A DNA stretch of 64,000 nucleotides, taken from contig OZ243972.1 in the NCBI GenBank assembly GCA_965214705.1, positions 1,312,001-1,376,000 of the forward strand, read 5' to 3'. Below the pieces are notes generated by a model, which made no database searches, was not told the origin of the DNA, and saw nothing but the letters and a program-made list of their open reading frames with translations. A program made the translations under genes and the position numbers. This document shows positions 25,082 through 43,544 of this stretch, piece by piece; the first letter of the stretch is position 1; the number at the start of each line of letters is the position of its first letter. Source of the DNA: Alphaproteobacteria bacterium (GTDB lineage Bacteria; Pseudomonadota; Alphaproteobacteria; UBA828).

Positions 25082-25679
25082 ATGACCGACCCCGACACAA
25101 TCTCCGCCGACTACACGCTGCGCCCCAGCGAACTGGCCGCCACCCTCAAGGTCCTTGTCGAAGCCAGGCAGCCCGTGATGGTCAGGGGATCTCCAGGCTG
25201 CGGCAAAAGCGAGCTCGCGCAGCAGGTCGCCGCCGAAGGCAGCCGCGGCTACTGCGACGTCCGGGCGCTGCTGCTCGATCCTGTCGACGTGCGCGGCATC
25301 CCCTGGCGCGACGCCGACAACCGCACCCGCTGGGCGCCCCCCGACTTTCTGCCGCCCACGGACAGCACCGACCTGTGGCTCGTCAACCTGGAGGAGCTCC
25401 CCTCCGCCGTACCCATGGTGCAGGCCGCGCTCTTCCAGCTCGTCCGCGACCGCAAGTGCGGGGAGTACGAGCTCCCGGAAGGCGCCTCGATCATGGCCTG
25501 CGGCAACCGCGAGGGCGACCGCGGCGTCACCCACCGCATGCCGACCCCGCTGGCCTCGCGCTTCGTCCACCTCGAGATCAAGGTCGATGCCTCCGACTGG
25601 TGCGCGTGGGGAGCCGCCAACGGAATCGCGCCCGAGACCCTGTTCTTCATCCAGCTCAGGCCGGAGCTTCTGAATGTGT
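25082..25679 (+). pseudogene. MoxR-like AAA+ ATPase, 5' part (interrupted by the integrative element)
   Basis: GSPGCGKS, NLEEL, ACGNREGD, LASRF; ends at RPELLNV, where composition shifts. Confidence 0.88.
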
Positions 25680-25750
25680 GACAAACTACAAGCGAGGATT
25701 ACCAAGTTGGTAGTTCTCTTTAGCGTTGCGAGCTCCTCCTTATACTGGTT

Positions 25751-25779
25751 ATACTACAGTGGGTTGGAGGCGGCGTCAA
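25751..25779 (-). promoter_or_regulatory. Candidate outward-facing sigma70 promoter
   Basis: TTGACG-N17-TAGTAT on the minus strand. Confidence 0.45.
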
Positions 25780-26090
25780 CGGAATTTTCGTGATGGGGTG
25801 GGGTCCATAAGGCAGACTCCTCGATAGCTCGATAGTTGCATTCGGGGACTTAACGTATTTCATTCGAATGTCGCGGGCGCAGTTTGGTATCTCTCTAGTA
25901 GAAGCCAGTGATTGGCTTGAGTATGGAAGCCATAACATATGTGTAATAGTGTCTTTGGACGCTATGGTGCCTGTAGGCGAGTCGTTGGCAGATGTCACGC
26001 GAATATCGCAGCGTGCTTCGCGCGACATTCGCTCATCTTGTGGCGTCGCTGGGCACGGGCGGAGCGATCGTACCACCGGATGCGGACGGC

Positions 26091-26417
26091 ATGAACGAGG
26101 CAGCAGAGGGGCGCAAACGACAGCGCGCAGTGATGGCCACGGACAGCGACTGGCAGGCGCTCAAGGAGCGCGCGGACGCTGTGGGAATGGACGTGTCGCG
26201 CTTCATCATGGAGCGGCTGACGGCGCCCGTTGCGGTGCAGGATGATGTGGACTTGAGGCGCGATCTCGCGGGCGCGGTGGCGCGCATCGAGCGCATGGTC
26301 AGGGTGCTCTACGAGGTCGAGAAAGAGCGCGTCGAGGGTTCCGCAGGGGCGGAGACCTGGCAGGCTCTGGTGCGCCGTGCCGGCACACGGAGCGATGCAG
26401 AGGAGGCACTCGGGTGA
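26091..26417 (+). CDS. Ribbon-helix-helix (MobC/CopG-like) protein 1
   Basis: RQRAVMATDSDWQALKERADAVGMDVSRFIMER. Confidence 0.65.
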   Translation: MNEAAEGRKRQRAVMATDSDWQALKERADAVGMDVSRFIMERLTAPVAVQDDVDLRRDLAGAVARIERMVRVLYEVEKERVEGSAGAETWQALVRRAGTRSDAEEALG

Positions 26418-26776
26418 CGGCAATCGAGGGTGGCGGGAAGCGGGAGATTGCGCGCATTCGCAGCGTCTACTGTTCGCCGGAGAACCGCGCATTGATCGGA
26501 CGGCGGGCCAAGGAAGCAGGGATGAGTTTCTCGCGCTTCATGATCGCCTGCGCGCTTCATGGGGTAGACGCCGAAGACGGCGAGGAAGGTCCTAGCCTGA
26601 TTCTGTCCGAGGATGAGCAGAGGCAGCTGTATGAGCGCGTGGCGCTTCTTGATCGGTGCAACGAGGCGCTGTTTTCGCGTCTGCCGGGGACGGAGATATC
26701 GGCGCTCGGCGCACTCGCCTTCCTTGCGCGGGAAGCGCGCGTCAGGTCCGGCGGCGAGGACGGGGACGGTTCATGA
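26414..26776 (+). CDS. Ribbon-helix-helix protein 2
   Basis: RIRSVYCSPENRALIGRRAKEAGMSFSRFMIAC; translationally coupled. Confidence 0.65.
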   Translation: MTAIEGGGKREIARIRSVYCSPENRALIGRRAKEAGMSFSRFMIACALHGVDAEDGEEGPSLILSEDEQRQLYERVALLDRCNEALFSRLPGTEISALGALAFLAREARVRSGGEDGDGS

Positions 26777-27219
26777 GGAGGCGTGACCGGACCCGGCCGA
26801 GGGCGTATTCGCTCTCATGCACCGACACCGACTGGGGACGCGTGCGGGTGCTGGCCGAGCGGAAAGGACTCTCCATCTCGCGCTACATGGTCGAGCGCGG
26901 CCTCACCGTGAACCCGGAGACCGAACCTGAACCGCCGCCTCGCCTCGTGCTGGACGAGGCAGAGCAGCGCACCCTTCTGGACCGTGTGGCCGCCATTGCG
27001 GAGCGCACGGTGAAGGCAGAGACGGACGATGCAGTGATGACGCGCATCCGCAACTCCCTCGCCTTCCTGGCCGAGGAGACGATGCGAACCATGATGCGCG
27101 AGGGCCGCGGGGATGAGCTGCGGGAGATGCTGACGGACCTCTTCGGCGAGCGGGTTGCGGCGGCAACCGTCGACCGGCTCCGCGCCCGCACGAGCGCCGA
27201 GAGTTCCGACTCGCCATGA
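26773..27219 (+). CDS. Ribbon-helix-helix protein 3
   Basis: RAYSLSCTDTDWGRVRVLAERKGLSISRYMVER; translationally coupled. Confidence 0.65.
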   Translation: MRRRDRTRPRAYSLSCTDTDWGRVRVLAERKGLSISRYMVERGLTVNPETEPEPPPRLVLDEAEQRTLLDRVAAIAERTVKAETDDAVMTRIRNSLAFLAEETMRTMMREGRGDELREMLTDLFGERVAAATVDRLRARTSAESSDSP

Positions 27220-27310
27220 TCGGAAGGCGGCCCGCCGCCGGTTGCGGGGGCCGGCCGCCGTGCCGGAAGACTGGACCGGGGGCGATCGAAGGGCGGGCCG
27301 GCGGGGCGAG

Positions 27311-30300
27311 TCACAGCTCGAGGCCCATGTCGATGTCGCGCTCCTTCGCCTTGCTGGCTTCGAGCTCCTGCCGGCGGCGTTCGATCTCGGCCTTGTCCGA
27401 TGCCAGGGTGGATTCGATCTTCGCCGAAAGGCGCCTGATCTCGTCATCCGCGCCCGGACGGCGCGAAAAATGCCTGCCGTAGGTCTCGGGGTCGTCGAAG
27501 ATGCGGCGGCAGCCATCTAGGGCGCGGAGGGCGCCATCGCGCCATTCGCCGTAGGCGGGATCCTCGGTGACATGGGCGCTGTTACTGGCAGCAATCGTCG
27601 CGTGCTCTTCGCGCTGCCGGATCGAGGCGGCGGCCGCTGACAGAGCCTGGTCCAGGAAGCGTTCCGCCGTCTTGCGGTTCTCCCGCGTCGCCTCGTCCAG
27701 GACCGCTTCCCTCTCTGGAGGCGGGTGCCGGGGAACATTCTCCGGCGAGGTCGAGACCGAGACCGAGGTCTCGAACTGCTCGCCGATGGCCCTGAGCGCC
27801 GACATCTGCTCTGCAGGCGAAGTCTCCAGGACTTCGATCAGCGCCTCCCGGTCGTCGGTCAGCAGCACCACGTTGTCGCGGGCGCGGGTGAGTTCCACAT
27901 AGAAGGTCGCCTGGTCGGCCACTCCCCCGCGCTCGGTATCCAGGACGGCGATGGCCCGGTCGCATGTGATGCCCTGGGCGGCGTGCACGGTGGACGAGTA
28001 GGCGTGGTCCAGGTGGTGAAGCTGAGGATCGTCGCGGGCCATGACGATCTCGCGGCCGTCCACTGTGCGTATCGTGACGTTCACCCGGCGGATGGACAGC
28101 ACTTCGGCATTCTCACCGTTGATCAGGCCGCGCGTGGAATCGTTGCGGGTCCAGCGCACCCGGTCGCCCGCCTTGAGCACCATCGGCCGGGTCTCGAAGA
28201 GGTCGAGGCGGTAGCGGATATAGCCGGAGGGATCGATGGCGCGCTCCTTGCCGCCGGGCATGGTGAGCACGACGCGCTCGTCTCCGACTTCGGTCACGCA
28301 GCAGGCGTCGCCGGCCTTCGCGCGGACGCCGTAGACGTCATGGTGAAAGACGGCGACATCGCCTTCCCCGTAGTTGGCGATGTCGCCCTTCTGGGAGCGG
28401 GTCAGGTGGAGGTTGACGTAGCGCTCGATCTCCAGCACGGGGCCGTGCAGCACCCCTTCGTCCTCCAGGCCGTGGCGGACGGCTGCGTTGATCTCGGCCC
28501 TGAGCTCGTGCGTGGGCGCCAGAATCGCCGTTCCGGGCCGCAGGTCCGGGTCGAGGTCGAGCCAGAGTTGCGCCGCCTTCCTGCCGAGCTCGTCACCCGC
28601 CGTCTCCAGGACGCCGTTGCCGAGTTCCTCGACCGCCAGGCGCGGCTCGTCCGCCACCATGTGCAGCACGGCCTGGCGCAGGTCCGCGTCGCGCTGGCGC
28701 ACCACCTCGTCCATCCTGGCGGTGGGCATCCCTGCGTCCTGCAGCAGGGCGAAGGGCTGGCCCGCCTCGACCGCGCGCAGCTGCCTCCTGTCGCCGATCA
28801 GCGCGAGGCGCTCGACGCCGGTCTCGGCAGCAATCCGCGTCAACGCCCGCATCTGGGTCGTGCCGACCATCGATGCTTCGTCGAGGATCAGCACCGAGCC
28901 GCCGAGCGCCTTGCGGGCTTCCTCCGTCCTCTCGGGCGAGGCGATGCCGTCGCCCACGTCGCGGTAGCGCGTGAGGAACCATTGCAGCGTGCGGGCCGGG
29001 ATGTCGGCTTCGCCTTCGAGCACGCGCGCGGCGCTCGCCGAAGGGGCGAGGCCGACGATCTGCCGCTCGCCTGCCAACTGCGCGACAGCGCGCAGCATGG
29101 TGGTCTTGCCGGAGCCCGCGTGCCCCTGCACCCCCACCGTCCGGTGAGGCGAGAGCAGGATCGCGCGCACCGCATCGCGCTGGCCGGGGTTCAACCCGGC
29201 CGCGTCGAGCTTAGCCTCAACCGCCCCTGCCGGCGCCAGGCTCCGCCCTGCGTCCAGGCCTACGCGCATGCCGGCGATAATGTCGCGCTCGGCGTTGCGC
29301 GCCCTGTCGGTGACGAAGGCCAGGTCCGCCCTCCGCGCCGTCGCTTCGATCAGGTGTCCGTCGCGCCGGAGCCGGGCGATACCGGCGTCCAGCGCGTCGA
29401 GCGAGTGCCGGCCGCCCCCGTGCGCCAGCGCCCAGGCGCGTAAGTCGTTGGCCGGGATCACGGTGCGCCGTTCCTCCAGGTGCTCCACGGCCTGCCGCAC
29501 CACCGCAAGCGCGGACGGCTGCGCCCGCGGCTCTGGCACGGGGGTTGCCGATGCGCCGATCCCGTTGCGGCCCCTTGCGATGTCCCGGTCGCGCGCCGGG
29601 CCGAGTTCTTGGGCCCGTTCCTGCCAAGTCTCGCGCAGGACCTGCCGGTCAGGCTCGGCCTTGCGCTGCCGTGTGTAAAGCGCCGCCTGCTGTGCTCTCG
29701 CCGGCGTGTTCTCCCAGCCACGCTCCTGCATGTAGTCCAACAACTCGCGGCGGCGGGTCGAGAAGGCGTCCAGCATCGGCTTCTGGTAGCCCGCGATCTC
29801 GAACCCCGGCATCCGCCCCACAAGCGTCGGCACCGTGGCGTAGCCGATCTTCTCGAGCCCCATGCGCAGCTCGTTGCGGTAGTAGGCGCCGATAAGCAGC
29901 TTCGAGCGCTCGACTGCGGTGAACTCGGCGCTCCGCCACTCCCCGTTCCGGCCGCGGGTCATGTTGGCGACCACCGCGTGCGTGTGCAGCTGAGGGTCCA
30001 GATTGCGGCTTGCGAGATGCCGGAAGGTCGCCGCCGCCATGCCATCCGCCTCTACCCTCGGCCTGCGCCCGGTCGCCGGGTCGTAGGTCCGTGTCTGGAA
30101 AAGCTCGGTCTCGATGAAGCCCAACGTTGCGCGCACCGCCTCGTCGTGTGCCTTCACCACACGAGCCCCCGTCTTCGGCGCTGCGTAGACCAGCGCCTCC
30201 AGCGAGACCGACTTGGGCGCCGAGAAGGTCACGTCCACGCCGGGCCTGTGCTGGTGCTCGCCGTCGCGCAGGCGGCCGAGGCGAAGGTCGGTGCCGGGAA

Positions 30301-30490
30301 CATAGCCCGCAAGCAGGTCCTCGAAGCGCTTCGGCTTGACCGGCCCCTTCAGGCCCATCAACGCCGCCGCCTCGCCGCACCAACCGCTCGCCTTGCGGTG
30401 CTCCGGGTCTCCCTTCGCGTAGTAGCCGTCCGCCTCGAAGTAGTGCACCGTCGTGGCGGCGGCCTTCAGGCGGGTGACGGTCGCGACCAT
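27311..30490 (-). CDS. MOBF (TrwC/TraI-like) relaxase-helicase
   Basis: YFEADGYY, DVTFSAPKSVS, HLASRNLDPQLHTH, FSTRR, helicase GHAGSGKT, LDEASM, HAYSSTVHAAQG, YVELTRAR. Confidence 0.93.
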   Translation of the reverse strand: MVATVTRLKAAATTVHYFEADGYYAKGDPEHRKASGWCGEAAALMGLKGPVKPKRFEDLLAGYVPGTDLRLGRLRDGEHQHRPGVDVTFSAPKSVSLEALVYAAPKTGARVVKAHDEAVRATLGFIETELFQTRTYDPATGRRPRVEADGMAAATFRHLASRNLDPQLHTHAVVANMTRGRNGEWRSAEFTAVERSKLLIGAYYRNELRMGLEKIGYATVPTLVGRMPGFEIAGYQKPMLDAFSTRRRELLDYMQERGWENTPARAQQAALYTRQRKAEPDRQVLRETWQERAQELGPARDRDIARGRNGIGASATPVPEPRAQPSALAVVRQAVEHLEERRTVIPANDLRAWALAHGGGRHSLDALDAGIARLRRDGHLIEATARRADLAFVTDRARNAERDIIAGMRVGLDAGRSLAPAGAVEAKLDAAGLNPGQRDAVRAILLSPHRTVGVQGHAGSGKTTMLRAVAQLAGERQIVGLAPSASAARVLEGEADIPARTLQWFLTRYRDVGDGIASPERTEEARKALGGSVLILDEASMVGTTQMRALTRIAAETGVERLALIGDRRQLRAVEAGQPFALLQDAGMPTARMDEVVRQRDADLRQAVLHMVADEPRLAVEELGNGVLETAGDELGRKAAQLWLDLDPDLRPGTAILAPTHELRAEINAAVRHGLEDEGVLHGPVLEIERYVNLHLTRSQKGDIANYGEGDVAVFHHDVYGVRAKAGDACCVTEVGDERVVLTMPGGKERAIDPSGYIRYRLDLFETRPMVLKAGDRVRWTRNDSTRGLINGENAEVLSIRRVNVTIRTVDGREIVMARDDPQLHHLDHAYSSTVHAAQGITCDRAIAVLDTERGGVADQATFYVELTRARDNVVLLTDDREALIEVLETSPAEQMSALRAIGEQFETSVSVSTSPENVPRHPPPEREAVLDEATRENRKTAERFLDQALSAAAASIRQREEHATIAASNSAHVTEDPAYGEWRDGALRALDGCRRIFDDPETYGRHFSRRPGADDEIRRLSAKIESTLASDKAEIERRRQELEASKAKERDIDMGLEL

Positions 30491-30496
30491 GGTCGG

Positions 30497-31135: not shown

Positions 31136-31315
31136 TCAAAGGCCCAGCCACTCCTCGGAGAGAAACCAACTCCCCCTACTTGCGTGCTGCCCAAACCGAA
31201 CACATCATATGGTAGCACAACCTTCCGACACTTCCTATTGCGCCCTCCGCCGTGCATGGGTTAGATTCGCATGTCCTCCTAGCTGGGCAGACTTCTGTAC
31301 GCAACATGGGAGTTT

Positions 31316-31450
31316 TGCTCTATGCCGGGTGTATAGCCAGGCTGAAGTGAATTGCGCGACATTCTTCGCCGGATAACCGGGAGACCCCGGACCGGCGAGC
31401 TAGCCGGTCCGGGGTCTCCCGGTTATCCGGCTCGCTCCAGGTAAGAGGGC
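31316..31450 (+). ncRNA. Retron msr-msd RNA
   Basis: Perfect 29-bp stem (31368-31396 / 31403-31431, loop GAGCTA). Imperfect a1/a2-like pairing CTCTATGCCGGG / CCAGGTAAGAG. Directly upstream of the effector-RT operon. Confidence 0.78.
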
Positions 31451-31453
31451 TCA

Positions 31454-32359
31454 GTGAGCCATCCGCTTAAGCATCCCAAAGGGGTAAACTTGCTAAAGCG
31501 GGTGGCCCACTCTTTCCGCTCAGATTCTACATACATCCTACCGTCCAGCGCGATCATATTTGTTTGCGGTGGTCCGTTGAATGAAGATTCTATGCGTCGC
31601 CGCTTTTCCGATTACGCCAGTTCGCATCTTCCTGAGCTGCGTCTGTTTCATGCTGAAGATGTAATGGAAGATTATAGCAGCCATGACGAGTCTGACTTTC
31701 AGAATGTTGCAGAGTTCGAAGACATCATGGCTTCGATTTCCAATTGCGTAATTCTTTTCCCAGAAAGCCCCGGCTCGCACGCTGAGTTAGGATATTTTTC
31801 TAGACATGAAGAACTACGCAAGAAGCTTCTCGTAGTGAACAATGCGAGTCTACAAAGCGCAGACAGCTTCATTTCTTTGGGACCAGTAGCGTTAATCGAT
31901 CAGAATTCTGACTTTCGACCGTCTATTCAACTGTCTCCCGACGATCCCGCATTTGACCTTGTGAAGCAGCGTCTGCAGAAGCGGGCGATTGTGAAAAGAA
32001 GAAGGAGGTACTTAGCATCGACTTACAAAGAGTTGTCCGATCAAAAAGTGTTTTATGCAGTATTTGATCTTATACACATTTTTCGTATTCTCACATTCGA
32101 AGAGTTGGAACATGCGTTTCGCCGAATTTGGAAAAATGCTAGTCGCACAAACCTGCGGCGAGCTCTTTCCATTCTAGTGGCTGCGAATTATGTTTGGAGA
32201 AGAGGCGATGACAACAACTACTTCTGTAAGAACCCATCGATGCAACCATTTTTGGATTTGCAAGATTTGGATTCGGATCAAGTTACAATGGAAGCTCTAG
32301 ACCTGTACGAGAAGAGCTTTCCAGAGGTGGTAGGTGTGTTACGAGGCGTGAAGTCGTGA
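31454..32359 (+). CDS. Retron effector, NDT-like domain plus C-terminal helical domain (St85/Ec86-type)
   Basis: IIFVCGG, FEDIMASISNCVILFPESPGSHAELGYF, SFISLGP; coupled to the RT. Confidence 0.85.
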   Translation: MSHPLKHPKGVNLLKRVAHSFRSDSTYILPSSAIIFVCGGPLNEDSMRRRFSDYASSHLPELRLFHAEDVMEDYSSHDESDFQNVAEFEDIMASISNCVILFPESPGSHAELGYFSRHEELRKKLLVVNNASLQSADSFISLGPVALIDQNSDFRPSIQLSPDDPAFDLVKQRLQKRAIVKRRRRYLASTYKELSDQKVFYAVFDLIHIFRILTFEELEHAFRRIWKNASRTNLRRALSILVAANYVWRRGDDNNYFCKNPSMQPFLDLQDLDSDQVTMEALDLYEKSFPEVVGVLRGVKS

Positions 32360-33270
32360 TAATTGATAAAATAGCCGGTGAGGCTGGTGTTGACAGTGCG
32401 CGTTTACTTGAAGTCGCTATGACCGCAGAACATCGGTATAGGACGTATCAGATACCAAAGCGCAAGGGCGGACTTCGGACAATTAGCCACCCAACGCCCC
32501 GCGTTAAATTCCTGCAACGATGGTTGAATAGGAATGTTTTCATAGGACTGCCTGTTCATCACACGGCATTCGCATACAGACGGGGGGTTGGAATCGCAGA
32601 TAACGCGAAAAAGCATGTTGAAAATAGTTACTTGCTCAAAATTGATTTCGCTGATTTCTTCCCATCGCTGACGGCACGCGATGTACGAACGGTATTAAGG
32701 AACAATAAGGAAGGCTTCAGTTTCGGTCCGCTCGAGGATGAGTTGGAGGTAATTGTAAGTATCGTATGCAGAAAGGGCGCTTTGACCATCGGAGCACCGA
32801 GCTCCCCAATTCTGGCTAATGCAATTATGTACGAGTTTGACACATGTTTGTACGATTTCTGTCATACAAACGGTATAGTATACACAAGATATGCTGATGA
32901 CATATTCCTTTCAACTAAACAACCCAACGTATTGTCGGGCGCTCTGAAATATGTGCGGCGTGACATAGCATCGCGAGAATCTCCTAGACTGTGTATAAAT
33001 GAGGCGAAAACAGTGTTCACATCAAAGAAACGTCGCCGACTAGTAACGGGCCTGGTCCTGACGTCGGATGGAAGGATATCAATCGGACGAAGGAACAAAA
33101 GAAAGACAAGAAGTCAGGTATATTCATATCTGAAGGGCGGGCTTGATAAAGAAGATGTGCTATATTTGAAGGGGTATTTGGCATTCGCAGAGTCTGTTGA
33201 ACCGGAGTTCGTAAGAGGCTTGTCGCTAAGGTACGGCGAAGACATTCTTGCAAAACTCCAAGAAGACTAG
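32356..33270 (+). CDS. Retron reverse transcriptase
   Basis: IPKRKGGLRTISHP, region X NAKKH, KIDFADFFPS, GAPSSP, YTRYADD, region Y VTGLVL. Confidence 0.95.
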   Translation: MIIDKIAGEAGVDSARLLEVAMTAEHRYRTYQIPKRKGGLRTISHPTPRVKFLQRWLNRNVFIGLPVHHTAFAYRRGVGIADNAKKHVENSYLLKIDFADFFPSLTARDVRTVLRNNKEGFSFGPLEDELEVIVSIVCRKGALTIGAPSSPILANAIMYEFDTCLYDFCHTNGIVYTRYADDIFLSTKQPNVLSGALKYVRRDIASRESPRLCINEAKTVFTSKKRRRLVTGLVLTSDGRISIGRRNKRKTRSQVYSYLKGGLDKEDVLYLKGYLAFAESVEPEFVRGLSLRYGEDILAKLQED

Positions 33271-34460: not shown

Positions 34461-34511
34461 TTCTCTCTTGTTCCTTTGTAGGCTGTGAGCGAAGTTTTAA
34501 GTCATCGTACT

Positions 34512-35498
34512 TCAGTTTCGGTGATGCGCCGCAACGGTCGTGCACATGTCCGCTAGACGCTGGCGAAGATGAGCGGGGTTTTCCACCGTGACGCTCTCGC
34601 CCCAGGTGACGAGGTGCCAGCACATCTCGTCGATGCCGCCGGCAGTGAAGCGCACCGTAAGCGTGCCGTCGGCGTTCTCCTGCATCGTCTGGCTGGGGTG
34701 GAATAGAAAGGCAGATGCGTCCCGCTTCGCCTCGGCCGTGAAGTGCAGCACAACGTCCACCGGCTCCTCCTGAAAGGTGCCGAAGGAACGCCTGGCGTAG
34801 GCCTCCAGGTCGAAGCCGGGGTCGCGCGTGAAGCTCTCGCTCGTGACGCGGGCCTCACTCATGTTGGCGAGCCGCCACAACCGCATGTCGTCGTTCCAGT
34901 CCGTCCGCCCCACCAGGAAGGGGCGGTTGCCGTAGAGCAGGCCGTAGGGCTCGATGCGCTGCCAACTTCGGCGCCCAGTCGTTCGGGCGAGATAGCGTAG
35001 CGCGACGACGCGGCGGGTGATGATCGCCTCGCGCAGGAGCGCGAGCAGGTCCTGGTCGAGTTGCGGCCTTGGGCCGGGTCGCATGGCCAGTCCTTCCGCC
35101 TGCACCAGCGCCTCGATGTCGGCTTCGATCCGCGCCAGCGAGTCGGTGTGCATGGTGGCCCGCAGCTTGACGTCCAACTCCTGCAGCGCCGCCCCGCGCG
35201 CTTCGAAGCCGGTGCGCTCCAGCGTCTCGGCCGCGGACCCAAGCTCCGCCAGTTCTTCGCCAGACAGGGGGACAAGGCGCCGGAGCGCGTCCGAGCGGAG
35301 CCGCCAGTGGTTCTTGTTGTCGTCGTGCTCCACCGATTCCAGCACCCCGAACGCCTCTTGGACCGCGTCGCGCATGCGCTCGGCCGTTCGTCGACTGACG
35401 CCGAACTCGGCCTCGATTTCGTCGAGCGTCATGCCGCCGCGCAGGCCCTGCATCCGGATCGCCAGCTTCACGATATTCGTCAGCCCTTCGTAACGCAC
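34512..35498 (-). CDS. HTH-WYL-WCX transcriptional regulator
   Basis: HTH TLDEIEAEFGVSRRTAERMRD, IEPYGLLYG, RLWRLANM, FDLEAYARRSFG, EMCWHLVTWG. Confidence 0.92.
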   Translation of the reverse strand: MRYEGLTNIVKLAIRMQGLRGGMTLDEIEAEFGVSRRTAERMRDAVQEAFGVLESVEHDDNKNHWRLRSDALRRLVPLSGEELAELGSAAETLERTGFEARGAALQELDVKLRATMHTDSLARIEADIEALVQAEGLAMRPGPRPQLDQDLLALLREAIITRRVVALRYLARTTGRRSWQRIEPYGLLYGNRPFLVGRTDWNDDMRLWRLANMSEARVTSESFTRDPGFDLEAYARRSFGTFQEEPVDVVLHFTAEAKRDASAFLFHPSQTMQENADGTLTVRFTAGGIDEMCWHLVTWGESVTVENPAHLRQRLADMCTTVAAHHRN

Positions 35499-35584
35499 CG
35501 GACACCCCTCTCCCGGCACTGCGGGTTCCGCGACCCTCACCCTAACCGGCGAGCACAGGGCGCGGAACCCGTGCACTGCGCTGC

Positions 35585-37666
35585 CTACAGTCCGAAGCCG
35601 ACGGGCCGAGGCCGGTCCGGCTTGGCTGCGCATTCGGCGCTCAGCATGGCGGCCAGTGCTGCCGGTTCTTCCAACCGGCCGAGGAGCGCGGCCTTCCGCC
35701 GCACCACGGCGAAGTCGGCGGGGGTAAGGGCGGTTAGACTTGCGATCTCCGCCGGCGGGACGAGGCCGAAATAGGTGCGGAACGCCGCCTTCGCCTGCGC
35801 TGGCGAGAGATAGTCGAACGCGACCTTGAAGACGAAGCGGCGGAAGGTCGCCGCGTCCAGGTGCTCACCGAAGTTGGTGGTGCAGGCGAAGGGCAGGGGG
35901 TGGCTCTCCATCCAGGTGAGCATCTCGTTCACCCGACTCACCTCCCAGGATTGCTCGGCGCCGCGGCGGTCGGCGAGCACAGAGTCTGCTTCGTCGAAGA
36001 TCAGGAACGCGCCCGCATCGCGCGCCTGGGCGAAGGCGGCGGCGATGTTTCGCTCCGTCCCTCCAACCCACATTGACATCAGGTCGGAGGACCGCTTCTG
36101 CATCACCTCCAGACCCATTCGCTCCGCGAGGTAGCGGACGAAGGCGCTCTTTCCCGTCCCTGGCGGTCCTTGCAGACAGAGCGAGAAGCGCCGCTCGCCG
36201 CTCGCCGTCAGGCTGTCCGCCAGCACGACTGGGTCGGTATCGGCCCGGATCAGCGCGGGGTCGAAGATCAGCGGTGCCCCTTGCGGCGGCGCCTCGCACG
36301 AAAGCACGCGGGAGAGGCCGCGCACTCCCAGCCGCACCGTCTCGATGCCTCCGCCGGCGATCCCCGCGGCCGCGGTGGCGCCCGCAGCCACGCCGGGGGT
36401 CGCAGTGAACTCCTGCGCCAGCGCGTGAGCCTCGTCGGGGCCGGCCTCGATTCCGTGGCGCTCAAGCTGGCGCTTCCAGACTTGTTCTCTGACCGCGGCG
36501 GTCGGCGGGCGAAGCTCCAGCGCAAACATCATGCGACGCAAGAGGGCTTTGCTGACTGCGCTCGCGTCGTTGAGCACCCAGAGCGTCGGCGCGGGCGCCC
36601 GCTCCAGCAGCCGATGCGTGTAGACCTTGGAGCCGCCGCTACGGGAATCGGAGAAAATCGGCTGCCCGAAGAGCGAGAGGCCGCCGCCGTCAGAGCCCGA
36701 CAGCAGATCCTCCATCTCGTCGAAGAGAAGAAGAGCGCTACGGTTTCGCGACACAAGGCGCTGGGCGAGCCGGAGCTCCTGCAGCCTCTCGCGGCGGCTG
36801 GGCTCGTCGCCCCCGTCGTCCGCCTCGCCGATGCCGTAGAGAGTAACGCCGAGGCGTTCGGCGAGGACCTTGCACAGCTCCGTCTTGCCAGTGCCGGGCG
36901 GTCCATACAAGAGGACGTTCACGCCCTTCGCTCCGCTCTGGAGCGCACCCCGGATCAGGCGTTCGATGTGATCGCGGCCCTCGGCGATATGACCAAAGTC
37001 CGACCATTCAAGCTCGCTTGCAGGCGCGGCGTCCAGCAGCAGGCGATGCACGTCGAGGCCGGCGCTACCGGGCACCGTAGCCAGGCGCCGCAGCCGATCA
37101 ACGATCGTCACGTCCCCATCGCTCTCGACGGAAAGAAGCCCCGAGCTCACCAACGGCGCGCTATCGGAAAGCCGGTCGCGGATGGTGCTGGCGGAAATGC
37201 TGAGAAGGGCGGGAACGATCGAGCCCTTGAGCGTGCGGGTGGCGAGCCTCTCGAACAGGGTCGAGCGGAGCATGACATCGTCGATCATCGACTCGATGAC
37301 GGGCTGCGTGTGATAGCGCAGCAGCAGCTCCAGGATCGCGACGTCCGTTCGATCGAGGCCAGTCGTCTGTGCCAGGCGTTGCAGCCGCCGCGCCGTGAGG
37401 TCGGGCTTGGGTTGCGCCCCCGTCGCGCGTTCCTCCTGCAGGGCTCGCTGAAAGACGCGCCATTCGCTCCTGGACAGCTTATCGTCAGGATCGATGTTCG
37501 CCCGATCCAGGCGGGAGCGAAGGCGCCTGCTCGCGAAGGCGACGCCTTGCTCGTTCTCCATCACCCATTCGGCCAACGCATCCGCCGCCCTGTCGCGGTG
37601 ACGGAGCCGCGCTGCGGCATTGGCCAGGTAGGTAACGATGAGATGTCGTTCGTAGTCGGTTGTCAT
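35585..37666 (-). CDS. Tandem double-AAA+ ATPase
   Basis: Two Walker A (GPPGTGKT, GPPGTGKS) and two Walker B (LFDEMED, IFDEAD) motifs; CTTN; FRRF. Confidence 0.9.
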   Translation of the reverse strand: MTTDYERHLIVTYLANAAARLRHRDRAADALAEWVMENEQGVAFASRRLRSRLDRANIDPDDKLSRSEWRVFQRALQEERATGAQPKPDLTARRLQRLAQTTGLDRTDVAILELLLRYHTQPVIESMIDDVMLRSTLFERLATRTLKGSIVPALLSISASTIRDRLSDSAPLVSSGLLSVESDGDVTIVDRLRRLATVPGSAGLDVHRLLLDAAPASELEWSDFGHIAEGRDHIERLIRGALQSGAKGVNVLLYGPPGTGKTELCKVLAERLGVTLYGIGEADDGGDEPSRRERLQELRLAQRLVSRNRSALLLFDEMEDLLSGSDGGGLSLFGQPIFSDSRSGGSKVYTHRLLERAPAPTLWVLNDASAVSKALLRRMMFALELRPPTAAVREQVWKRQLERHGIEAGPDEAHALAQEFTATPGVAAGATAAAGIAGGGIETVRLGVRGLSRVLSCEAPPQGAPLIFDPALIRADTDPVVLADSLTASGERRFSLCLQGPPGTGKSAFVRYLAERMGLEVMQKRSSDLMSMWVGGTERNIAAAFAQARDAGAFLIFDEADSVLADRRGAEQSWEVSRVNEMLTWMESHPLPFACTTNFGEHLDAATFRRFVFKVAFDYLSPAQAKAAFRTYFGLVPPAEIASLTALTPADFAVVRRKAALLGRLEEPAALAAMLSAECAAKPDRPRPVGFGL

Positions 37667-37730: not shown

Positions 37731-38276
37731 CCTAATCGAGAAGACAACGATTTCGTAGTGCCACTCGCAAGACTCCTGAATGAGAACGCCGTCGTCGCCG
37801 CCGGTCTCTCGTAACGTGTTGCCGTTCACGGCGATGGTATGGCCAAGATCGCCGTCAAGTCACGTCTCGCCAGCGCCGGCCTCGCCAGGAGGCAAGTTCG
37901 CAGCCCATGTCTCAGGCTGATGAGTGGATGAACAGGAGCCTTCGTCGCTGAGCCCGACACCGATACCTAAGAGTGTCAACGCAATTGCTGTGTGGTGACG
38001 TTCTGCCTGATCAGTTAAGCTACCAGTCAGGGAGACGAGTAGGCGAATCATCTTGGCGGCTCTTGCCATTCTGGACATTATAGGAATTGAAGCCGCTGAG
38101 GCCTCGCCTACCCGGCGCTTTAAGCATCCGAAAGAGTAAACCAAATGCAGCCCCCGCAACTCCCGGCAACCGACATCCTTTCCATACCACCGACGTACTT
38201 CGGCGGTCGTCAGGTATTCCCTGGTGGTCCACAGGCTTTGGCCGGCACTGCATGTCATGCGTTCTCATCAACCGCA

Positions 38277-39095
38277 ATGCATCTTGGTGCACCGCTGCGC
38301 ACACCAGCTCCACGTGTATGTTCCATAGTACGTTTTGTGATATTTCTTTGCGTGTTCGTGTTCTTTGTTGCATCCCAAGTCGAAGCATTCTCGTCGCTTC
38401 GTTATATCCCTCGCGTAACCGACGAAGTGTTCGACAAGCTTCTCGACTTATCAAAATCGACGGGTGGAACGAAGAAAGTTGGAAAACTTCATGATGAGAC
38501 TTTGCCGTCTCAAGTGCTGGAATTATCCCCTCCAATTCGGGAGGAACTTCTGGCCGGGACTTTTCTACACTTGGCAGTCAGAAAGGGCGTGCTTCCTTCC
38601 GAAGAAGCAGTAGGAATGTTTTTCAGGCTGAGAGGCGTCAAGGGCTTTCGTGAAACCCTCAGAAAGATTGTGGGAGTCAGTGATTCGGTGATGAAGGGTC
38701 ACTTGTACGAGCTGCGTCTTGCCAATGCTTCTTCGATACATGGATTCCGCGTCAAGCACATCAATGAACTCTATCACGACGGCCTAAAGAGGGGACCTAC
38801 TGATATCGACTTGGTATTGGAGAGAGGCGACGCATTAGTGGCAATTGAAGCCAAAAGCTATACTCCCCCGCTCGATAAGCTGCGCGCAGACATGGATACA
38901 CTAAAGGCTTACGTTGAGTCTGCTGCCCCACAACGGGTGATTCCCGTTCTCGCCATGCCCACGCCCAAGAATCAGAATACACGTCGTCTTGTGGATGAGG
39001 CAGCCAAAAGACGAGGCGTCGAGGTTATTCTAGGTTCTACAGACGATCAGGTTTTGCGTCTGAAGCATCTGACGTTTGCAGGTAATGCGCAATGA
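38277..39095 (+). CDS. Putative exported or membrane-anchored PD-(D/E)xK-fold protein (start uncertain)
   Basis: Hydrophobic N-terminus ending ASQVEA; GHLYEL..TDIDLVL..VAIEAKSY. Confidence 0.6.
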   Translation: MHLGAPLRTPAPRVCSIVRFVIFLCVFVFFVASQVEAFSSLRYIPRVTDEVFDKLLDLSKSTGGTKKVGKLHDETLPSQVLELSPPIREELLAGTFLHLAVRKGVLPSEEAVGMFFRLRGVKGFRETLRKIVGVSDSVMKGHLYELRLANASSIHGFRVKHINELYHDGLKRGPTDIDLVLERGDALVAIEAKSYTPPLDKLRADMDTLKAYVESAAPQRVIPVLAMPTPKNQNTRRLVDEAAKRRGVEVILGSTDDQVLRLKHLTFAGNAQ

Positions 39096-40642
39096 GCCTT
39101 AGCCGTAGACGGTTGCTTTCGTACTGTGCGCTCACTTGCGTTGTCATTAGTGTAGCTGTCGTTTCTGCACTGGTCTACGTGCAACCCGGCTACGCCATTT
39201 TAGGAATTGGTCAAGCGGGCGGAAGTTTCGAGAGTTTCTATACTACCAAGGGCCTTAGCTGGATCGACTGGGCGATAGCTGGACTTTCGACCTTAGGGTT
39301 GGGAGTGGTTGTATTCTTTACGGGTGGATTGGCAAGCCCGCTATTGGTTTTGGCTCCTGGGGTAAAGGTCATTGCGACGTGGATTGGTGGCTTGGGAACA
39401 AAGCTCGCCGGCACAGCGGCCCTAAACCACGGTCTTGCCCTGCTTGGCGGAGGCACCATTGCAGCTGGCGGTTTGGGGAAGGCGGGAGGAGCTGCAGTGC
39501 TATCTACGGTGCTAGCGGGCGCATGGGAAGCGCCTTTCTGGACCGCTGGGGAAGTGTATGACGCGCTGGTAGTTACGGAGGACAGAGACTACGACTATAA
39601 TGGGCTTTTGCAGCAGAGGCGGAATTTTCTGGCGACATTGCCACTCCCGAAAAACCACTCGGGCCCGAAGGCCTATGAGGCAGGGATTGACGTTTTGGAA
39701 GAAATTGAAGACTTGAAAGATTTAAGTCGCGATGACGCACTATTGATTGTGCAGGAAAATCACCGCGTGCTAGTTGAGGCGATCCACGCGATACGATGGA
39801 ACTTGAATTCGGAAAGTGAATTCCGAAAACGACTGGAAATGATTGATGACACATTGGAGCTGTCGTCGCCACTAAATCAAGAAATCATTAACACGGCCGT
39901 AGGGCACTTGCTCTATGACACATGGGCCGTTGAAGATCTGGCAGACGCGTCTTTGCTTTCTCTTTTGTACTTCATCTTGAATGATTATGAACGAGCGAAG
40001 CAATACTCAAGCCGAGCTGAAATTATAGCCAGATACGAAGCCGGTTCCGCGAGCGATATTGATGAAGGGGCAAACTTGGCGATATTTGTTGGCGCAGTGA
40101 GTTCCTTGTACGATGAAGACTTCGACTGGAAGGAGGTGCTCGATAGAGTTGAGCGCTCTGTTCTATCTGATCCTGAAAATGTTCTGATTCCTCTGCTGTT
40201 GGCGATTTTGCTGGATCGAGTAGAGTTGCGAATTAATGACGGTTATCTTGACGAGCAGGCGTTTGCACAAATACTCGAGATCATGGAGCAACCTGAAATG
40301 GAAGAGTTCAGGTTTAAAAACTTCGTGATATTACTTTCCCGGTATCTGAAGCGCCTAGAGGTGGAGCGCCAAACTATCGAGGTCCTAGTGCGAACCGAGA
40401 ATGATACAATTCGAAGCAACCTAAAAACTCTGGAAACTGTTGAAGAGTCGCTGCGAGCGTACAAAGCTCTCTTGGACGAGGGTAGCTATGTTGAGAAGTG
40501 GATCACAGTGCTTCCACTAGAGGAAGAAGAGGATCGACGAAATGTGGTCAACGTTAGCAGCGCCTTCAGCCGGTACTCCTTCAAGACGCAGGAGCTTGTA
40601 GACTTGGTCGTCGGTCTTCGAGCATACCAAGCTAAGGGCTAA
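39092..40642 (+). CDS. Membrane protein with Gly/Ala-rich hydrophobic hairpin and helical C-terminus
   Basis: N-terminal TM segments; AALNHGLALLGGGTIAAGGLGKAGGAAVL; ATGA-coupled to the previous gene; lower GC. Confidence 0.75.
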   Translation: MSLSRRRLLSYCALTCVVISVAVVSALVYVQPGYAILGIGQAGGSFESFYTTKGLSWIDWAIAGLSTLGLGVVVFFTGGLASPLLVLAPGVKVIATWIGGLGTKLAGTAALNHGLALLGGGTIAAGGLGKAGGAAVLSTVLAGAWEAPFWTAGEVYDALVVTEDRDYDYNGLLQQRRNFLATLPLPKNHSGPKAYEAGIDVLEEIEDLKDLSRDDALLIVQENHRVLVEAIHAIRWNLNSESEFRKRLEMIDDTLELSSPLNQEIINTAVGHLLYDTWAVEDLADASLLSLLYFILNDYERAKQYSSRAEIIARYEAGSASDIDEGANLAIFVGAVSSLYDEDFDWKEVLDRVERSVLSDPENVLIPLLLAILLDRVELRINDGYLDEQAFAQILEIMEQPEMEEFRFKNFVILLSRYLKRLEVERQTIEVLVRTENDTIRSNLKTLETVEESLRAYKALLDEGSYVEKWITVLPLEEEEDRRNVVNVSSAFSRYSFKTQELVDLVVGLRAYQAKG

Positions 40643-40715: not shown

Positions 40716-41855
40716 TCAACCCCTTAGTAGCCGTGCGAGGCTCACTCCGATGCGTTCTGCCGCGGCCTCAGTCTCACGGTCGCCGACATGGGCGTAGCGC
40801 AGTGTCATGCCCGGATTCTTGTGACCAAGCAAGCGGGAGACCACTGGCAGGGGAATGCCTTGGAGCACGGCGTGGCTGGCGTACGTGTGCCGAAGGTCAT
40901 GAATTCGCACATCCTCGATCCCGGCTTCCCTGCGCGCGGAGTACCAGAGCGGCAGATCGGAGCACTGCGGCCGCTCCGGATCGAGCGGCGATGGAAAGAC
41001 GAAGGCGCTGCCCGACCGCGGCTGGCGCTCCAGGATGGCGCGGGCCGGCGCATTCAGGAACACCTGTCTCGGGCCGGTCTTGGCATCGGCGAGGTTGACG
41101 GTATCCCCGTCCACGTCCCGCCAGCGCATGGTCACAATCTCGCTCTTGCGGCAGCCTGTCAGCAGCAGGAGGCGGATGATGTCGGCCTGTTGCGCGCGCG
41201 ACGGCCGCGCGCCGGCGTAGCGGTCCAGCACGCGGTGAAGGCGATGGACTTCATCGCGCGAGAGGAAGCGGGTGAGCCTGGGTCGGGGGTTGCGCTTGAT
41301 GCCGTGCGTGGGGTTGGTGTCGAGGTGGCCGCAGTCGATTGCATGGTTCAGGATCTGGCGGAGCACGTTCAACGCACGATTGGCACCGCCGGGCGCGGTC
41401 CGGCTGTATTCGTCGAACCAGCGGGTCACGGCGATTCGGCCGATCCGGTCCACCGGAATCGGGCCGAAGGCCGGAAGCAGGAGCCCGTTGAGGACCAGGC
41501 GCACGCCCTTTTGCGTCGACGGCTTGCATGTGTCGAGCCGCGCCTGCGCCGGACCGGCGACGAAGTCCGCGAAGGTCGGGACCGCTCCCCGTTCCGGCCT
41601 GCCACCGTGCGGCGCGGTTTCGATTTTGAGGCACCGCGCACGCGCTTCCTCGACGCCCATGAGCGCAGCAGGTCCGAGGGTGATCCTGCGCGCGCCGCCC
41701 TCGCCCTTGCGGCAATACACGAAGCTGCGGTGTCCCGACGGGCGGACGCGGACGCCGAGACCCGCAAGGCGCGTGTCCCAGACCGTATACTCGCGCGCCG
41801 CTGGCGCAAGCTTCGCCACGTTGGCGTCGGTCAGACGCCGCCTCTTCGCGGCCAT
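40716..41855 (-). CDS. Tyrosine recombinase 2 with N-terminal arm-binding domain
   Basis: WDTRLAGLGVRV, LLTGCRKSE, AKTG, HDLRHT, LLGH, TLRY. Confidence 0.93.
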   Translation of the reverse strand: MAAKRRRLTDANVAKLAPAAREYTVWDTRLAGLGVRVRPSGHRSFVYCRKGEGGARRITLGPAALMGVEEARARCLKIETAPHGGRPERGAVPTFADFVAGPAQARLDTCKPSTQKGVRLVLNGLLLPAFGPIPVDRIGRIAVTRWFDEYSRTAPGGANRALNVLRQILNHAIDCGHLDTNPTHGIKRNPRPRLTRFLSRDEVHRLHRVLDRYAGARPSRAQQADIIRLLLLTGCRKSEIVTMRWRDVDGDTVNLADAKTGPRQVFLNAPARAILERQPRSGSAFVFPSPLDPERPQCSDLPLWYSARREAGIEDVRIHDLRHTYASHAVLQGIPLPVVSRLLGHKNPGMTLRYAHVGDRETEAAAERIGVSLARLLRG

Positions 41856-41858
41856 GCC

Positions 41859-42992
41859 TCAACCCTCCACCAGTGCGGCGCCGACGATGTCGGCCGCCTC
41901 GCGCACCATGGCGTCGGACAGATGGGTGTATTTCAGCGTCGTCGCCGGATTGCGGTGCCCGAGGAGGCGGCCGATGGTCAGCACCGTCTCGCCCTGCGCG
42001 AGCGCCATGCTGGCGTACGTGTGCCGGCAATCGTGAAGGCGGACATCGGACAGACCGGCTTCCGCTCCGACGTGGTGCCAGAATTTGCCGAGCGTCACCG
42101 TGTGCACGAAGCCGTCCGTCCGCGGCGAGGGGAAGATCCAGGTTGCCGTGCGAGGCAGTTCGTCGAGGACCGCGCGCGCGGCGGACGAGAGCCAGACCGT
42201 GCGCGGCCCCGACTTGGAATCGCGCAGGAACAGCTTGCCCTCGCGGTAGTCGCGCCATTTGAGCGAGACGATTTCGCCCTTGCGGCATCCGGTGAGCAGC
42301 AGCAGCCGTACGATCGCCACGGCTTGCGGATTATCGGCTTCATGGCGTGCCAGCACTTCGCCCAGCCGGCGCATGTCGGCGGCAGACAGGAAGCGCTCCC
42401 GGCCCTGGCGGCGGTAGCGCTTGATGCCGACGCACGGGTTGGTGCCCTCGGGCCGGTAGCCGTAGACCTCGGCCTGGCTCATGATGACCGAGAGCACCGG
42501 AGCCGAGCGGTCGGCGGCCACCGGGGTCTCGTGGAGCGAGGCGAACCAGCGCTTGACGTCGCTGGCGGCGATGTCCGCGATGGAACGCCCTTCGAACCAG
42601 GGCAGGATCTGGTTCTTGTAGTAGCCCCGGTTGACGTTGAGCGTGGACGGCTTCCAGTTCCGGGCGTAGCGGCGGAAGACTTCTTCTGCGACCGTCTCGA
42701 AGGCGACGTCCGCGGGTGCTGCGGTCTCGTCGCCGCTTCCGTTGCGGATCGCGGCCAGCAGGGTCCTGGCCCGGCTGCGGGCTTCGTCCAGGTCGATGTC
42801 CCCTGCCTGGCCGACGATCTTCCAGATTCGCCGCCCGTTGTGCTGGCTGTGGATGAAGTAGCGTCTGGCGCCCGAGGTCAGGACCCTTACGCCGAAACCC
42901 TTGAGTTCCCGGTCGCGCACGTCGTAGGCGGACTTGCGGGGCTTGAGCGCATCGACGCGGCGTTGGTCGAGGCGAAGCGTCGCCATCGGCAT
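41859..42992 (-). CDS. Tyrosine recombinase 1 with N-terminal arm-binding domain
   Basis: RDRELKGFGVRV, LLTGCRKGE, SKSG, HDCRHT, LLGH, TLKY. Confidence 0.93.
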   Translation of the reverse strand: MPMATLRLDQRRVDALKPRKSAYDVRDRELKGFGVRVLTSGARRYFIHSQHNGRRIWKIVGQAGDIDLDEARSRARTLLAAIRNGSGDETAAPADVAFETVAEEVFRRYARNWKPSTLNVNRGYYKNQILPWFEGRSIADIAASDVKRWFASLHETPVAADRSAPVLSVIMSQAEVYGYRPEGTNPCVGIKRYRRQGRERFLSAADMRRLGEVLARHEADNPQAVAIVRLLLLTGCRKGEIVSLKWRDYREGKLFLRDSKSGPRTVWLSSAARAVLDELPRTATWIFPSPRTDGFVHTVTLGKFWHHVGAEAGLSDVRLHDCRHTYASMALAQGETVLTIGRLLGHRNPATTLKYTHLSDAMVREAADIVGAALVEG

Positions 42993-43106
42993 TCCTCCTG
43001 CGTTCCGTTGCAGCCGGGGCGAAATCGGGGATCGATTCCGTGTCGTCCGGCTAGATCAGGAGGAAAAAAGCAACGCTGTGTCAGTATATTAGCACCGTAG
43101 GTGCGC

Positions 43107-43544
43107 CTGATGGTGTTCGATCCTCAGTCGCGCGAGGCGGCGTTCGCATGTCCCCGCACCTGGGAGTTTGTCTCGAACGTCGTGAACCAGCGCGGCAGCC
43201 TCGACCCCGCCGCGGAGCGGGCGCTGTTCCGGGGCGCTGTCGGCGAGTCGGCGGCGGTCGAGTTCTCCGCCTTCCTCAAGGTCTGGCGCGAGCTGCCCCA
43301 TCCCCGGGCCGTCATCGACGATCCCGAGAACGCGGACGTACCCGAGAACGCCAGCGCGCTGATCGCGCTCTGCGGCTCGCTCTACCGCATGGCCGACGAC
43401 GTCAACCTCGGTTCGATCGTCAGCTACGCCATGAGGCTGAGGCGCGAGGTGGGCGAGTTCCTCGTCGGCTCGTGCGTGCGCCGCGAACCCGCGCTCCAGC
43501 ATACCGACGCCTTCATCCGCTGGGCCGCCGCCCGGACCCAGTGA
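43107..43544 (+). pseudogene. MoxR-like AAA+ ATPase, 3' part
   Basis: VFDPQSREAAFACPRTWEFVS continues in frame from PELL at 25670. Confidence 0.85.

Follow-up and report, generated by a model that had tools for sequence, protein, structure and literature searches.

Why would a mobile element carry two complete integrase genes side by side, and does the gene that it interrupts matter to it? These questions are raised by a 64,000-nucleotide stretch of an alphaproteobacterial genome of the UBA828 lineage (contig OZ243972.1, positions 1,312,001 to 1,376,000; here called the window), in which an AAA+ ATPase gene of an integrative and conjugative element (ICE) is split by an insert of 17,437 bp (window positions 25680-43116, or 25670-43116 with both crossover cores). 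A preliminary description, made from the sequence alone, took this insert for a mobilizable defense island that reversibly switches the ATPase gene off and on. We arrive at a different answer: the insert is probably a member of a multicopy family of integrative mobilizable elements (IMEs) that behave like low-specificity transposons.

Insertion site, element family, and crossover core

Both borders can be read to the base. On the left, the open reading frame (ORF) from 25082 terminates as ...CAG CTC AGG CCG GAG CTT CTG AAT GTG TGA; the 5′ part of the gene (25082..25681, + strand) ends with RPELLNV and a stop codon supplied by the insert, where orthologs go on with NVFDPQ. On the right, the ATPase frame is taken up again as CTG ATG GTG TTC GAT CCT CAG... 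and stays open to 43544, and this 3′ part (43117..43544, + strand) reads FDPQSREAAF... to its stop. Intact orthologs have the protein sequence CTGAATGTGTTCGAT / RPELLNVFDPQSRE across the site, or FFIQLRPELLNVFDPQSREAAFACPRTWEF at loci L004 and L009; the corresponding DNA is GAGCTTCTGAATGTGTTCGATCC in L007 and L009, and L004 differs by one silent base.

The left core, attL (25670..25679), is CTGAA-TGTGT, a 5-nt variable overlap followed by a pentamer. As CTGAATGTGT, it matches the uninterrupted target of the relatives base for base. The right core, attR (43107..43116), is CTGAT-GGTGT, with an element-type overlap and the pentamer of the family, as judged from the border sequence, the family right ends, and the overlap comparison below; as CTGATGGTGT, it is two bases off the target. 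The preliminary description had noted these two differing bases, and it was also right that excision would restore the frame. Both cores are 10 bp long, and the gene parts (598 nt, 25082-25679, and 428 nt, 43117-43544) sum to 1026 nt (342 codons). Whichever core stays behind, removal of the insert thus gives back the 341-codon frame of the ATPase, and intact orthologs read through the site.

At its right end, the insert carries two paralogous tyrosine recombinase genes on the − strand, identified by domain matches and alignment: intB (40716..41855, B-type, 379 aa) and intA (41859..42992, A-type, 377 aa). The proteins are 39% identical over 375 aa (E 3e-67). Arm-DNA-bind_3, Phage_int_M, and Phage_integrase domains are found in IntA and IntB alike, and each has the catalytic residues R-K-H-R-H-Y. 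The genes lie 3 bp apart (the stop TGA, GGC, then ATG), which bears out the earlier observation of two catalytically complete integrases in tandem.

A tblastn search with both integrases found 137 integrase-like places in the 7.9-Mb host genome, and 26 full IntA-then-IntB pairs were counted (IntA-type meaning at least 55% identity), with a spacing of 7-28 nt by script estimate. All 26 pairs have ~125 bp upstream of intA in common. Read in intA orientation, this shared end consists of the flank, ACACC, five variable bases (N5), GCGCACCTNCGGTGCTAA, and farther on CTGACATAGNGTTGC, a T-run, and CTCC; likeness among the copies ceases at the ACACC-N5 junction. Profile searches found 40 right ends, 36 of which read ACAC[CG]-N5-[GAT]CGCACC (34 with exactly ACACC), and 18 true left ends, 15 of them GGTGTG[CA]; the left end of the present element is TGTGTGA. 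The left terminal region of the insert (25680..25792, + strand) contains a hairpin (25694-25718) followed by TTTAGCGTTGC and CTCCTCC, and is the inverted counterpart of the right terminal region by the left-end nhmmer profile and the inverted repeat. The right region (42995..43106, − strand) reads, on its own strand, as a GCGCACC-TAC-GGTGC hairpin (43106-43092), TAATATACTGAC-ACAGCGTTGC, a T-run, CCTCCTG, and the intA leader. Here AGCGTTGC (25722-25729) pairs with GCAACGCT (43070-43077), and nearby CTCCTCC pairs with GGAGGAA. The shared inverted motif of the preliminary description is therefore real, and more extensive than it appeared: as the left-end profile of the family finds the present right end in inverted orientation (E 8.7e-07), and the right ends of other members too, the motif is part of imperfect terminal inverted repeats of ~70 bp.

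A small ribbon-helix-helix (RHH) homolog lies 285-354 bp inside 17 of the 18 left ends, and a MOBF relaxase gene is present near the left end in many family members, not in all. The smallest complete member, at 4.16 kb, has no relaxase; between its ends are only the RHH gene, a single cargo gene, intB, and intA. Collecting homologous pairs and mapping their ends, as the preliminary description had suggested, gave the same end architecture in the 26 host-genome pairs and diverse targets. Degeneration of one integrase in relatives, which it had named as a danger to its view, is rare among the host-genome pairs: R-K-H-R-H-Y is kept in 26/26 IntA and 24/26 IntB, the exceptions being one Y-to-F change and one truncated protein.

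The variable bases behave in a particular way. In window orientation, attL is flank-N5-GGTGT-left end and attR is right end (...GGTGCGC)-N5-GGTGT-flank. In 12 other paired elements of the host genome, the cognate N5 agree at 5, 5, 4, 4, 4, 3, 5, 4, 5, 5, 3, and 3 positions (mean 4.17/5), against a mean of 1.47 for 528 non-cognate combinations, 79 of which reach 3 or more. Junction bases thus differ between the two ends, at one or two N5 positions, in 7 of the 12 cognate pairs; GGTGT is intact in all 12, so the N5 differences do not come from general decay. Cognate N5 that are not identical still match at 3-4 of five positions, which is not what would be seen if no homology were needed in the variable bases. 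The present element agrees at 4/5 and has one pentamer mismatch in addition. Six copies with at least 94% identical IntA, in six flanks, have the N5 CGTCT, CGCGC, CGCAC, CGTCC, CGTCA, and CGCAT, and a pair with 99% identical IntA has CCGAT vs CCGGT. Tyrosine recombinases cut the two strands 6-8 bp apart; because element and target have nothing in common to the right of GGTGT, the overlap must reach into N5, and mismatches must be tolerated there. The mismatch tolerance proposed in the preliminary description is thus upheld, and the data fit an overlap that would prefer partial homology and drift as the element moves.

The targets are as varied as the overlaps. Of the non-self relatives, ten have the end motif, and none of these has a flank related to the ATPase gene; five of them are 91-94% identical in IntA, and two of the ten share one flank. 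The 25 paralogous pairs of the host genome are likewise in other flanks. With close relatives in unrelated flanks, the ATPase gene is an incidental landing site and not a dedicated switch.

The pair itself is far more constant than its surroundings. In a set with one genome per species, IntB follows directly downstream of an IntA-type match (at least 39% identity) in 44 of 46 assessable loci, and the other two have IntA fragments only. The ACACC-N5-hairpin end is visible by eye in 13 of the 14 loci written out for the ~58-80% identity group. Judged by record titles, most of the relatives are uncultured marine Alphaproteobacteria; Paracoccaceae and a small number of other groups make up the rest. 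Matches on plasmids, at no more than 42% identity, comprise A/B-orthologous pairs in Shewanella and two-place matches, their tandem order unchecked, in Vibrio, sphingomonads, and others. Of two overlapping genes on the Shewanella oneidensis MR-1 megaplasmid, the first, int1, is closer to IntA (42% identity) than to IntB (32%), and the second, int2, is closer to IntB (40%) than to IntA (31%). As the A/B orthology reaches Shewanella, the A/B split is old and the pair has been inherited as a unit. This co-conservation of intact IntA and IntB fits a two-subunit recombinase, although it is not proof of one.

Some further observations concern the family and its relatives. About 15 additional tandem integrase pairs in the host genome, some of them duplicated, are ~34-41% identical to both IntA and IntB and have gaps of 33-139 nt (for example, C2:538294-540671 and C2:603352-605729). 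At G000:C1:614526-614848, members are nested, the right end of one element starting inside the truncated intA of another. Ahead of two left ends (G000:C1 ~360420-360470 and G000:C3 ~2760690-2760740), a 12-base unit stands in 3-4 tandem copies, GGTGGTGTCGCG and GACAAAACATGA, respectively, the first unit including the GGTGT core; these units possibly reflect slippage at the core or abortive recombination that took place there repeatedly. An IntA/IntB pair 77% and 82% identical to the present one is found on a contig of 8.9 kb (L048) that is binned as Dehalococcoidia, either through cross-phylum transfer or through a binning error. The tmexCD-toprJ units, described with 'two integrase genes' in PMC11448381, were considered as relatives and dropped: no IntA match lies on Pseudomonas or Klebsiella plasmids among the 25 listed of 37 records or among the ten tallied genera.

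Putative origin of transfer and competing explanations

The insert encodes a TrwC/MobF relaxase-helicase of 1059 aa (27311..30490, − strand; TrwC E 2.8e-76), convergent to the RHH genes. It has the TrwC relaxase domain and an SF1B helicase, as expected of MOBF, and scores 251.5 bits with the NCBIfam MobF model (cut-off 100). No type IV secretion system (T4SS) or coupling-protein family was matched among the scanned ORFs within 25670-43116, in line with the preliminary description of a MOBF relaxase without T4SS. Over ~900 aa, the enzyme shares 32% identity with R388 TrwC (E 9e-102), more than with the relaxase of the host ICE (27%), and the right end of the family recalls the R388 origin of transfer (oriT). 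Between trwA and stbA, the R388 record reads GCGCACC GAAA GGTGCG TATTGTCT ATAGCC; the family right end reads GCGCACC TNC GGTGCT, 11 bases ending in CTGAC, then ATAGCG. Common to both are the hairpin arms GCGCACC/GGTGC and the nic-like ATAGC. This likeness was drawn by eye; MAFFT did not align the family ends with the oriT of R388. On its strength, the hairpin and the nic-like motif at the right end are probably the oriT of the element. A genome-wide regular-expression search for hairpin and nic motif gave 24 matches, 20 of them family right ends, and is uninformative on oriT function. With its own integrases and defined ends, a relaxase without a mating-pair apparatus, and a putative oriT, the insert has the make-up of an IME, as the preliminary description had it.

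The conserved family core consists of a translationally coupled intA-intB operon at the right end, encoding two anciently diverged P4-type recombinases, together with an RHH gene inside the left end, imperfect inverted repeats of ~70 bp, and a 10-bp crossover core, N5-GGTGT. In the mechanism that we propose, the excised circle would carry ...GGTGCGC-N5-GGTGT-GCAC/GACA... as attP and would recombine with any chromosomal N5′-GGTGT in which N5′ matches its own N5 at 3/5 positions at least. Mismatches in N5 would form a heteroduplex, and replication would leave the target N5 at one junction and the element N5 at the other. The next excision may then carry a changed N5, and target preference would drift. 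Such a model predicts one target-type and one element-type N5 per insertion, and the present copy, with attL identical to the target, is of this form: its attB in the ICE ATPase gene would have been CTGAA-TGTGT, which attL has kept, whereas CTGAT-GGTGT in attR would be the version of the element. An oriT at the right end would be used by the TrwC-type relaxase and the RHH proteins, and transfer could take place through a helper T4SS or as a passive ride in the ICE. It is possible, and we put it forward tentatively, that IntA and IntB are the two subunits of one recombinase in a widespread, undescribed class of mobile elements, in which the 5-base overlap is rewritten at each hop, target preference takes a random walk, oriT lies within the terminal repeat, and an R388-like module is assembled only in the circle.

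Several points weigh against this family model. No near-identical sibling of the present copy exists, the nearest relaxases being 92-95% identical, so that an old or inactive element is conceivable. TGTGT stands in its left core, where the family has GGTGT. Kinship among many of the copies also means that the counts do not stand for independent events: for at least three right ends, a common flank and N5 go back to the duplication of a larger unit. In four public runs of one study that contain the locus, no ~17.4-kb joint that 'goes back', as the attP circle would, is listed in the contigs, which says nothing either way, contigs dropping rare forms. The nic-like motif of the present copy is ACAGC(G) and not ATAGC. 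The likeness to R388 is limited to 12 identical arm bases (7 + 5) and a 5-base nic motif, with a spacer 3 nt longer here, and BLAST finds no similarity between the RHH protein and TrwA. Alternatively, the hairpin beside N5 may be a core site of the integrases, either in place of an oriT or in addition to one.

Two candidate signals in the runs were rejected. A joint 25675->43113, skipping 17,437 bases, occurs in the contigs of 4/4 runs and looks like an empty site; it is explained by a 92% identical ATPase paralog, which has the same junction without interruption and lies above the 90% threshold. The low cover that run X1 shows over 31140-40649 was not accepted as absence of the cargo, X1 being shallow and one of its contigs spanning attL without difference.

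The view of the preliminary description, in which a site-specific satellite has the ATPase gene as its natural target and integration and excision act as a reversible on/off switch, we now regard as very improbable. It draws on the restoration of the frame with either core, and the 4/5 agreement between the N5 of attL and attR makes an earlier stay in a similar gene conceivable. However, the closest relatives (IntA 91-94%) occupy four other flanks and the 25 paralogous pairs lie elsewhere, the element-type core CTGATGGTGT is in none of the eight orthologous sites written out (L002-L009), and no other ATPase homolog inspected is cut at the present site; other short-framed copies are cut at a different place, by insertion sequence (IS)-type DNA in the single copy checked. 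There is a real, if minor, chance that one integrase alone integrates and excises the element, the other serving directionality control, dimer resolution, or a different site, with no heteromer formed. Single P4/SXT-type integrases suffice in known islands, and the elements with Y-to-F and truncated IntB, one each, persist. Yet the six catalytic residues are kept in both proteins in nearly all copies across 55-100% identity, the order, coupling, and A/B orthology are preserved between Alpha- and Gammaproteobacteria, and IntB is absent only beside fragmentary IntA (2/46 loci).

It is also quite unlikely that the insert is an immobile relic whose core mismatches and odd left terminus arose by decay of a once perfect direct repeat. 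Such a relic would explain why no identical second copy and no circle or empty site came to light, as well as the TGTGT of the left core. All core genes are intact, however; attL equals the uninterrupted target, so that TGTGT is the target's own sequence, and mismatched N5 with intact GGTGT are the rule in the family (7/12 and 12/12 pairs). Hardly credible, finally, is insertion and excision by the HUH relaxase in place of the integrases, as in TrwC oriT-specific recombination, with the ends acting as oriT-like sites. TrwC-type relaxases are known to recombine oriT copies, and the two ends here carry, in inverted orientation, a hairpin with a nic-like motif after it; but homology among copies ends at N5/GGTGT, ~35-60 bp away from the nic-like motifs, the 4.16-kb member with ends, RHH gene, and both integrases has no relaxase, and across the family the integrase pair is constant whereas the relaxase varies. 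The reading as a mobile family driven by the paired integrases is the one that we retain as probable. What the sequences establish are the anatomy, the family, the diversity of its targets, the N5 statistics, and the restored frame; strand exchange as outlined above, use of both integrases as a hetero-oligomer, oriT function, and present-day activity are inferred.

Cargo of the insert and the host conjugative element

G+C content is ~70% across the window and dips twice to 45-56% within 25670-43116. From the left end, the insert begins with rhh1 (25992..26417, + strand), a small NikA-like RHH gene whose product is a candidate relaxosome accessory or directionality factor. The NikA-like genes rhh2 (26414-26776) and rhh3 (ORF 26656-27219) follow by domain match (together 26414..27219, + strand). 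Beyond the relaxase gene lies a retron of type II-A (St85), recognized by a reverse transcriptase and an NDT effector above their family cut-offs and a structured RNA upstream. The candidate noncoding RNA (31270..31450, + strand) has a 29-bp perfect stem (~31368-31431) and a fold z of -8.46; Rfam has no retron or other RNA family in 25000-44000, and for this RNA just a palindromic sub-threshold match. The effector gene (31454..32359, + strand) has a PADLOC E of 1.3e-58 and 177.6 bits in NCBIfam (cut-off 100), and the reverse transcriptase gene (32356..33270, + strand) a PADLOC E of 9.4e-109 and 332.7 bits (cut-off 235).

Three further genes on the − strand (33849..37666) are cargo of unproven role, with family matches to DUF6642 (33849-34460), a WYL/WCX regulator (34512-35633), and a two-domain AAA ATPase (35585-37666), the second AAA domain of which resembles IetA. 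Two overlapping low-GC genes on the + strand (38145..40642; ORF calls of 316 and 516 aa) have no recognizable family: nothing usable came out of Pfam (E up to 5), PADLOC, NCBIfam, or the ESM Atlas, in which their scores of 0.76 and 0.83 are under the lead level. At ~52% G+C in a 70% G+C genome, this pair beside the integrases is a candidate for a novel cargo system. Of the 'defense island' of the preliminary description, then, the retron is certain; no other defense system was recognized in the insert, and further defense content is conjecture. Elsewhere in the window, 172-11190 holds a complete Hma (helicase-methylase-ATPase) defense system (HmaA 172-3393, HmaB 3390-6287, HmaC 7876-11190, the N-terminus of HmaC being a Swt1-like HEPN domain), and two IS110-family genes lie at 13845-15029 and 15128-16468.

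The surroundings place the interrupted gene within an ICE; by gene content, this element spans some 130 kb and has an apparatus like those of type IVB. Upstream of the window are a TraG/VirD4-type coupling protein (G000:C1:1276055-1278112), a single-stranded DNA-binding protein (SSB), DotH/IcmK, DotI/IcmL, DotD, a TcpQ-like protein, a shufflon-type pilin, and a T2SSE ATPase. Downstream come a strawberry-notch-type helicase, an SSB, a Toprim primase, a second TrwC relaxase (1386487-1390596), a P4-type integrase (1405439-1406791), and then housekeeping genes. Coupling protein, mating apparatus, relaxase, and integrase thus occur in one block. PF03135 (VirB4/TrbE) has no match anywhere in the host genome, and the apparatus is Dot/Icm-like. 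One 778-aa ORF of the ICE (G000:C1:1287910-1290246, equal to L034:15910-18246) has both DotI/IcmL and DotH/IcmK domains, as a fusion or through a merger of ORF calls. The preliminary description had seen the insert as a satellite parasitizing a larger conjugative element. Its nesting in such an element is confirmed, and the parasitism is unsupported: the relaxases of insert and ICE are 27% identical, and the host genome has 11 matches to the family of type IV coupling proteins.

The label of ATPase, or 'MoxR', for the interrupted gene is soft. The AAA_5 match (E 0.002, 18.5 bits) is under the Pfam cut-off of 22; in favor of the MoxR label of the preliminary description are weak midasin and CbbQ matches and a VWA-like DUF2201 gene two genes downstream. 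A DUF3150 gene also follows the interrupted gene. Homologs of the N-terminal fragment were found in 23 of 61 related genomes searched, 18/20 in the same genus. The 92% paralog in the host genome, outside the window, is uninterrupted at the present site (G000:C1:1526112-1526461) and is broken 54 bp farther on, after ...RTWE, by ~7.8 kb of multicopy IS-type DNA (region G000:C1:1526112-1534528). This DNA comprises a 2.6-kb unit, near-full copies of which number at least 7, and a 1.5-kb unit present at least 13 times. The ortholog in genome G017 (L007) likewise stops after RTWE, which suggests a second recurrent insertion site in this gene.

Comparison with known systems

The family of two-integrase mobilizable elements is apparently large and undescribed. 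We found no published account of an arm-binding P4-type integrase pair with these ends, in a search that covered neither subscription journals nor supplements; in a classification of tyrosine recombinases (PMC8138268), a term search did not find the word 'tandem'. Where 'site-specific integrase' genes stand in tandem, duplication or the nesting of two islands is the usual reading; in the present case, they mark a distinct element family. This family is very successful, with its 26 full pairs in a 7.9-Mb genome, carries relaxases and defense cargo, and can nest in ICEs. For annotation, the signature ACACC-N5-GCGCACC on the right and N5-GGTGT on the left delimits such islands automatically. If the overlap does drift with each move, a short fixed motif and a transferable, mismatch-tolerant overlap would be combined in one tyrosine recombinase, which would bear on how integrases evolve toward new targets and on the design of integrases targeted by a few donor bases. 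If the two-subunit reading is true as well, the pair would be a naturally 'reprogrammable' integrase.

The closest parallel in the overlap is with CTnDOT and Tn916. In CTnDOT, as here, a conserved dinucleotide or pentamer adjoins about 5 free bases. In CTnDOT and in Tn916/Tn1549, the element carries the sequence of its last site as coupling sequences. Like IntDOT, as characterized in PMC2817482, the present family has a short conserved motif beside about five bases that are free to mismatch, and its junctions may differ. Unlike these elements, it has two P4/SXT-type (Arm-DNA-bind_3) integrases by domain match, not a single one of the IntDOT/IntTn916 subgroup, as well as long inverted repeats, no T4SS of its own, and partial N5 homology. 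The 'Tn916/CTnDOT-like' recombination of the preliminary description holds in spirit, in the tolerant overlap, and not in the enzymes or in the homology that is kept.

Several recombinases in an operon at one end, imperfect inverted repeats, and a spacer that records the previous site are also features of Tn554, SEs, GInts, and RITs, as far as the available descriptions go. Their gene sets, given in PMC10214605, are intA-tfp-intB-srap in SEs, ginABCD in GInts, ritABC in RITs, and tnpABC in Tn554; SEs leave a 6-bp 'footprint' there, and SEs and GInts are described as non-mobilizable. The present family has two recombinase genes only, similar-sized and arm-binding, with no conserved gene after intB. 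It lacks a Tfp/GinC-like third protein and a Srap/TnpC-like gene, and it has an RHH partner at the opposite end and, in many members, a MOBF relaxase; these distinctions are drawn from published descriptions. XerC/XerD likewise are two paralogous tyrosine recombinases that act together, each expected to serve one half-site or strand pair. However, they are chromosomal housekeeping enzymes without arm-binding domains, and heteromeric action in the present family is suggested by co-conservation.

IMEs that nest in ICEs or are mobilized by them form a general class reviewed in PMC5704250. The insert resembles this class in having an integrase and a relaxase/oriT without mating apparatus, in its position inside a conjugative element, and in its defense cargo; but a classical IME has a single site-specific integrase and one fixed attB, which is often a tRNA or a conserved gene, whereas the present family inserts at many sites. 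Finally, in the circle, a distance of ~400 bp would separate the putative right-end oriT from the RHH gene, and the two would be divergent, like oriT and trwA in R388. In contrast to the R388 DNA transfer and replication (Dtr) module, there is no coupling protein or T4SS here, and the oriT-like site doubles as the terminus of the element.

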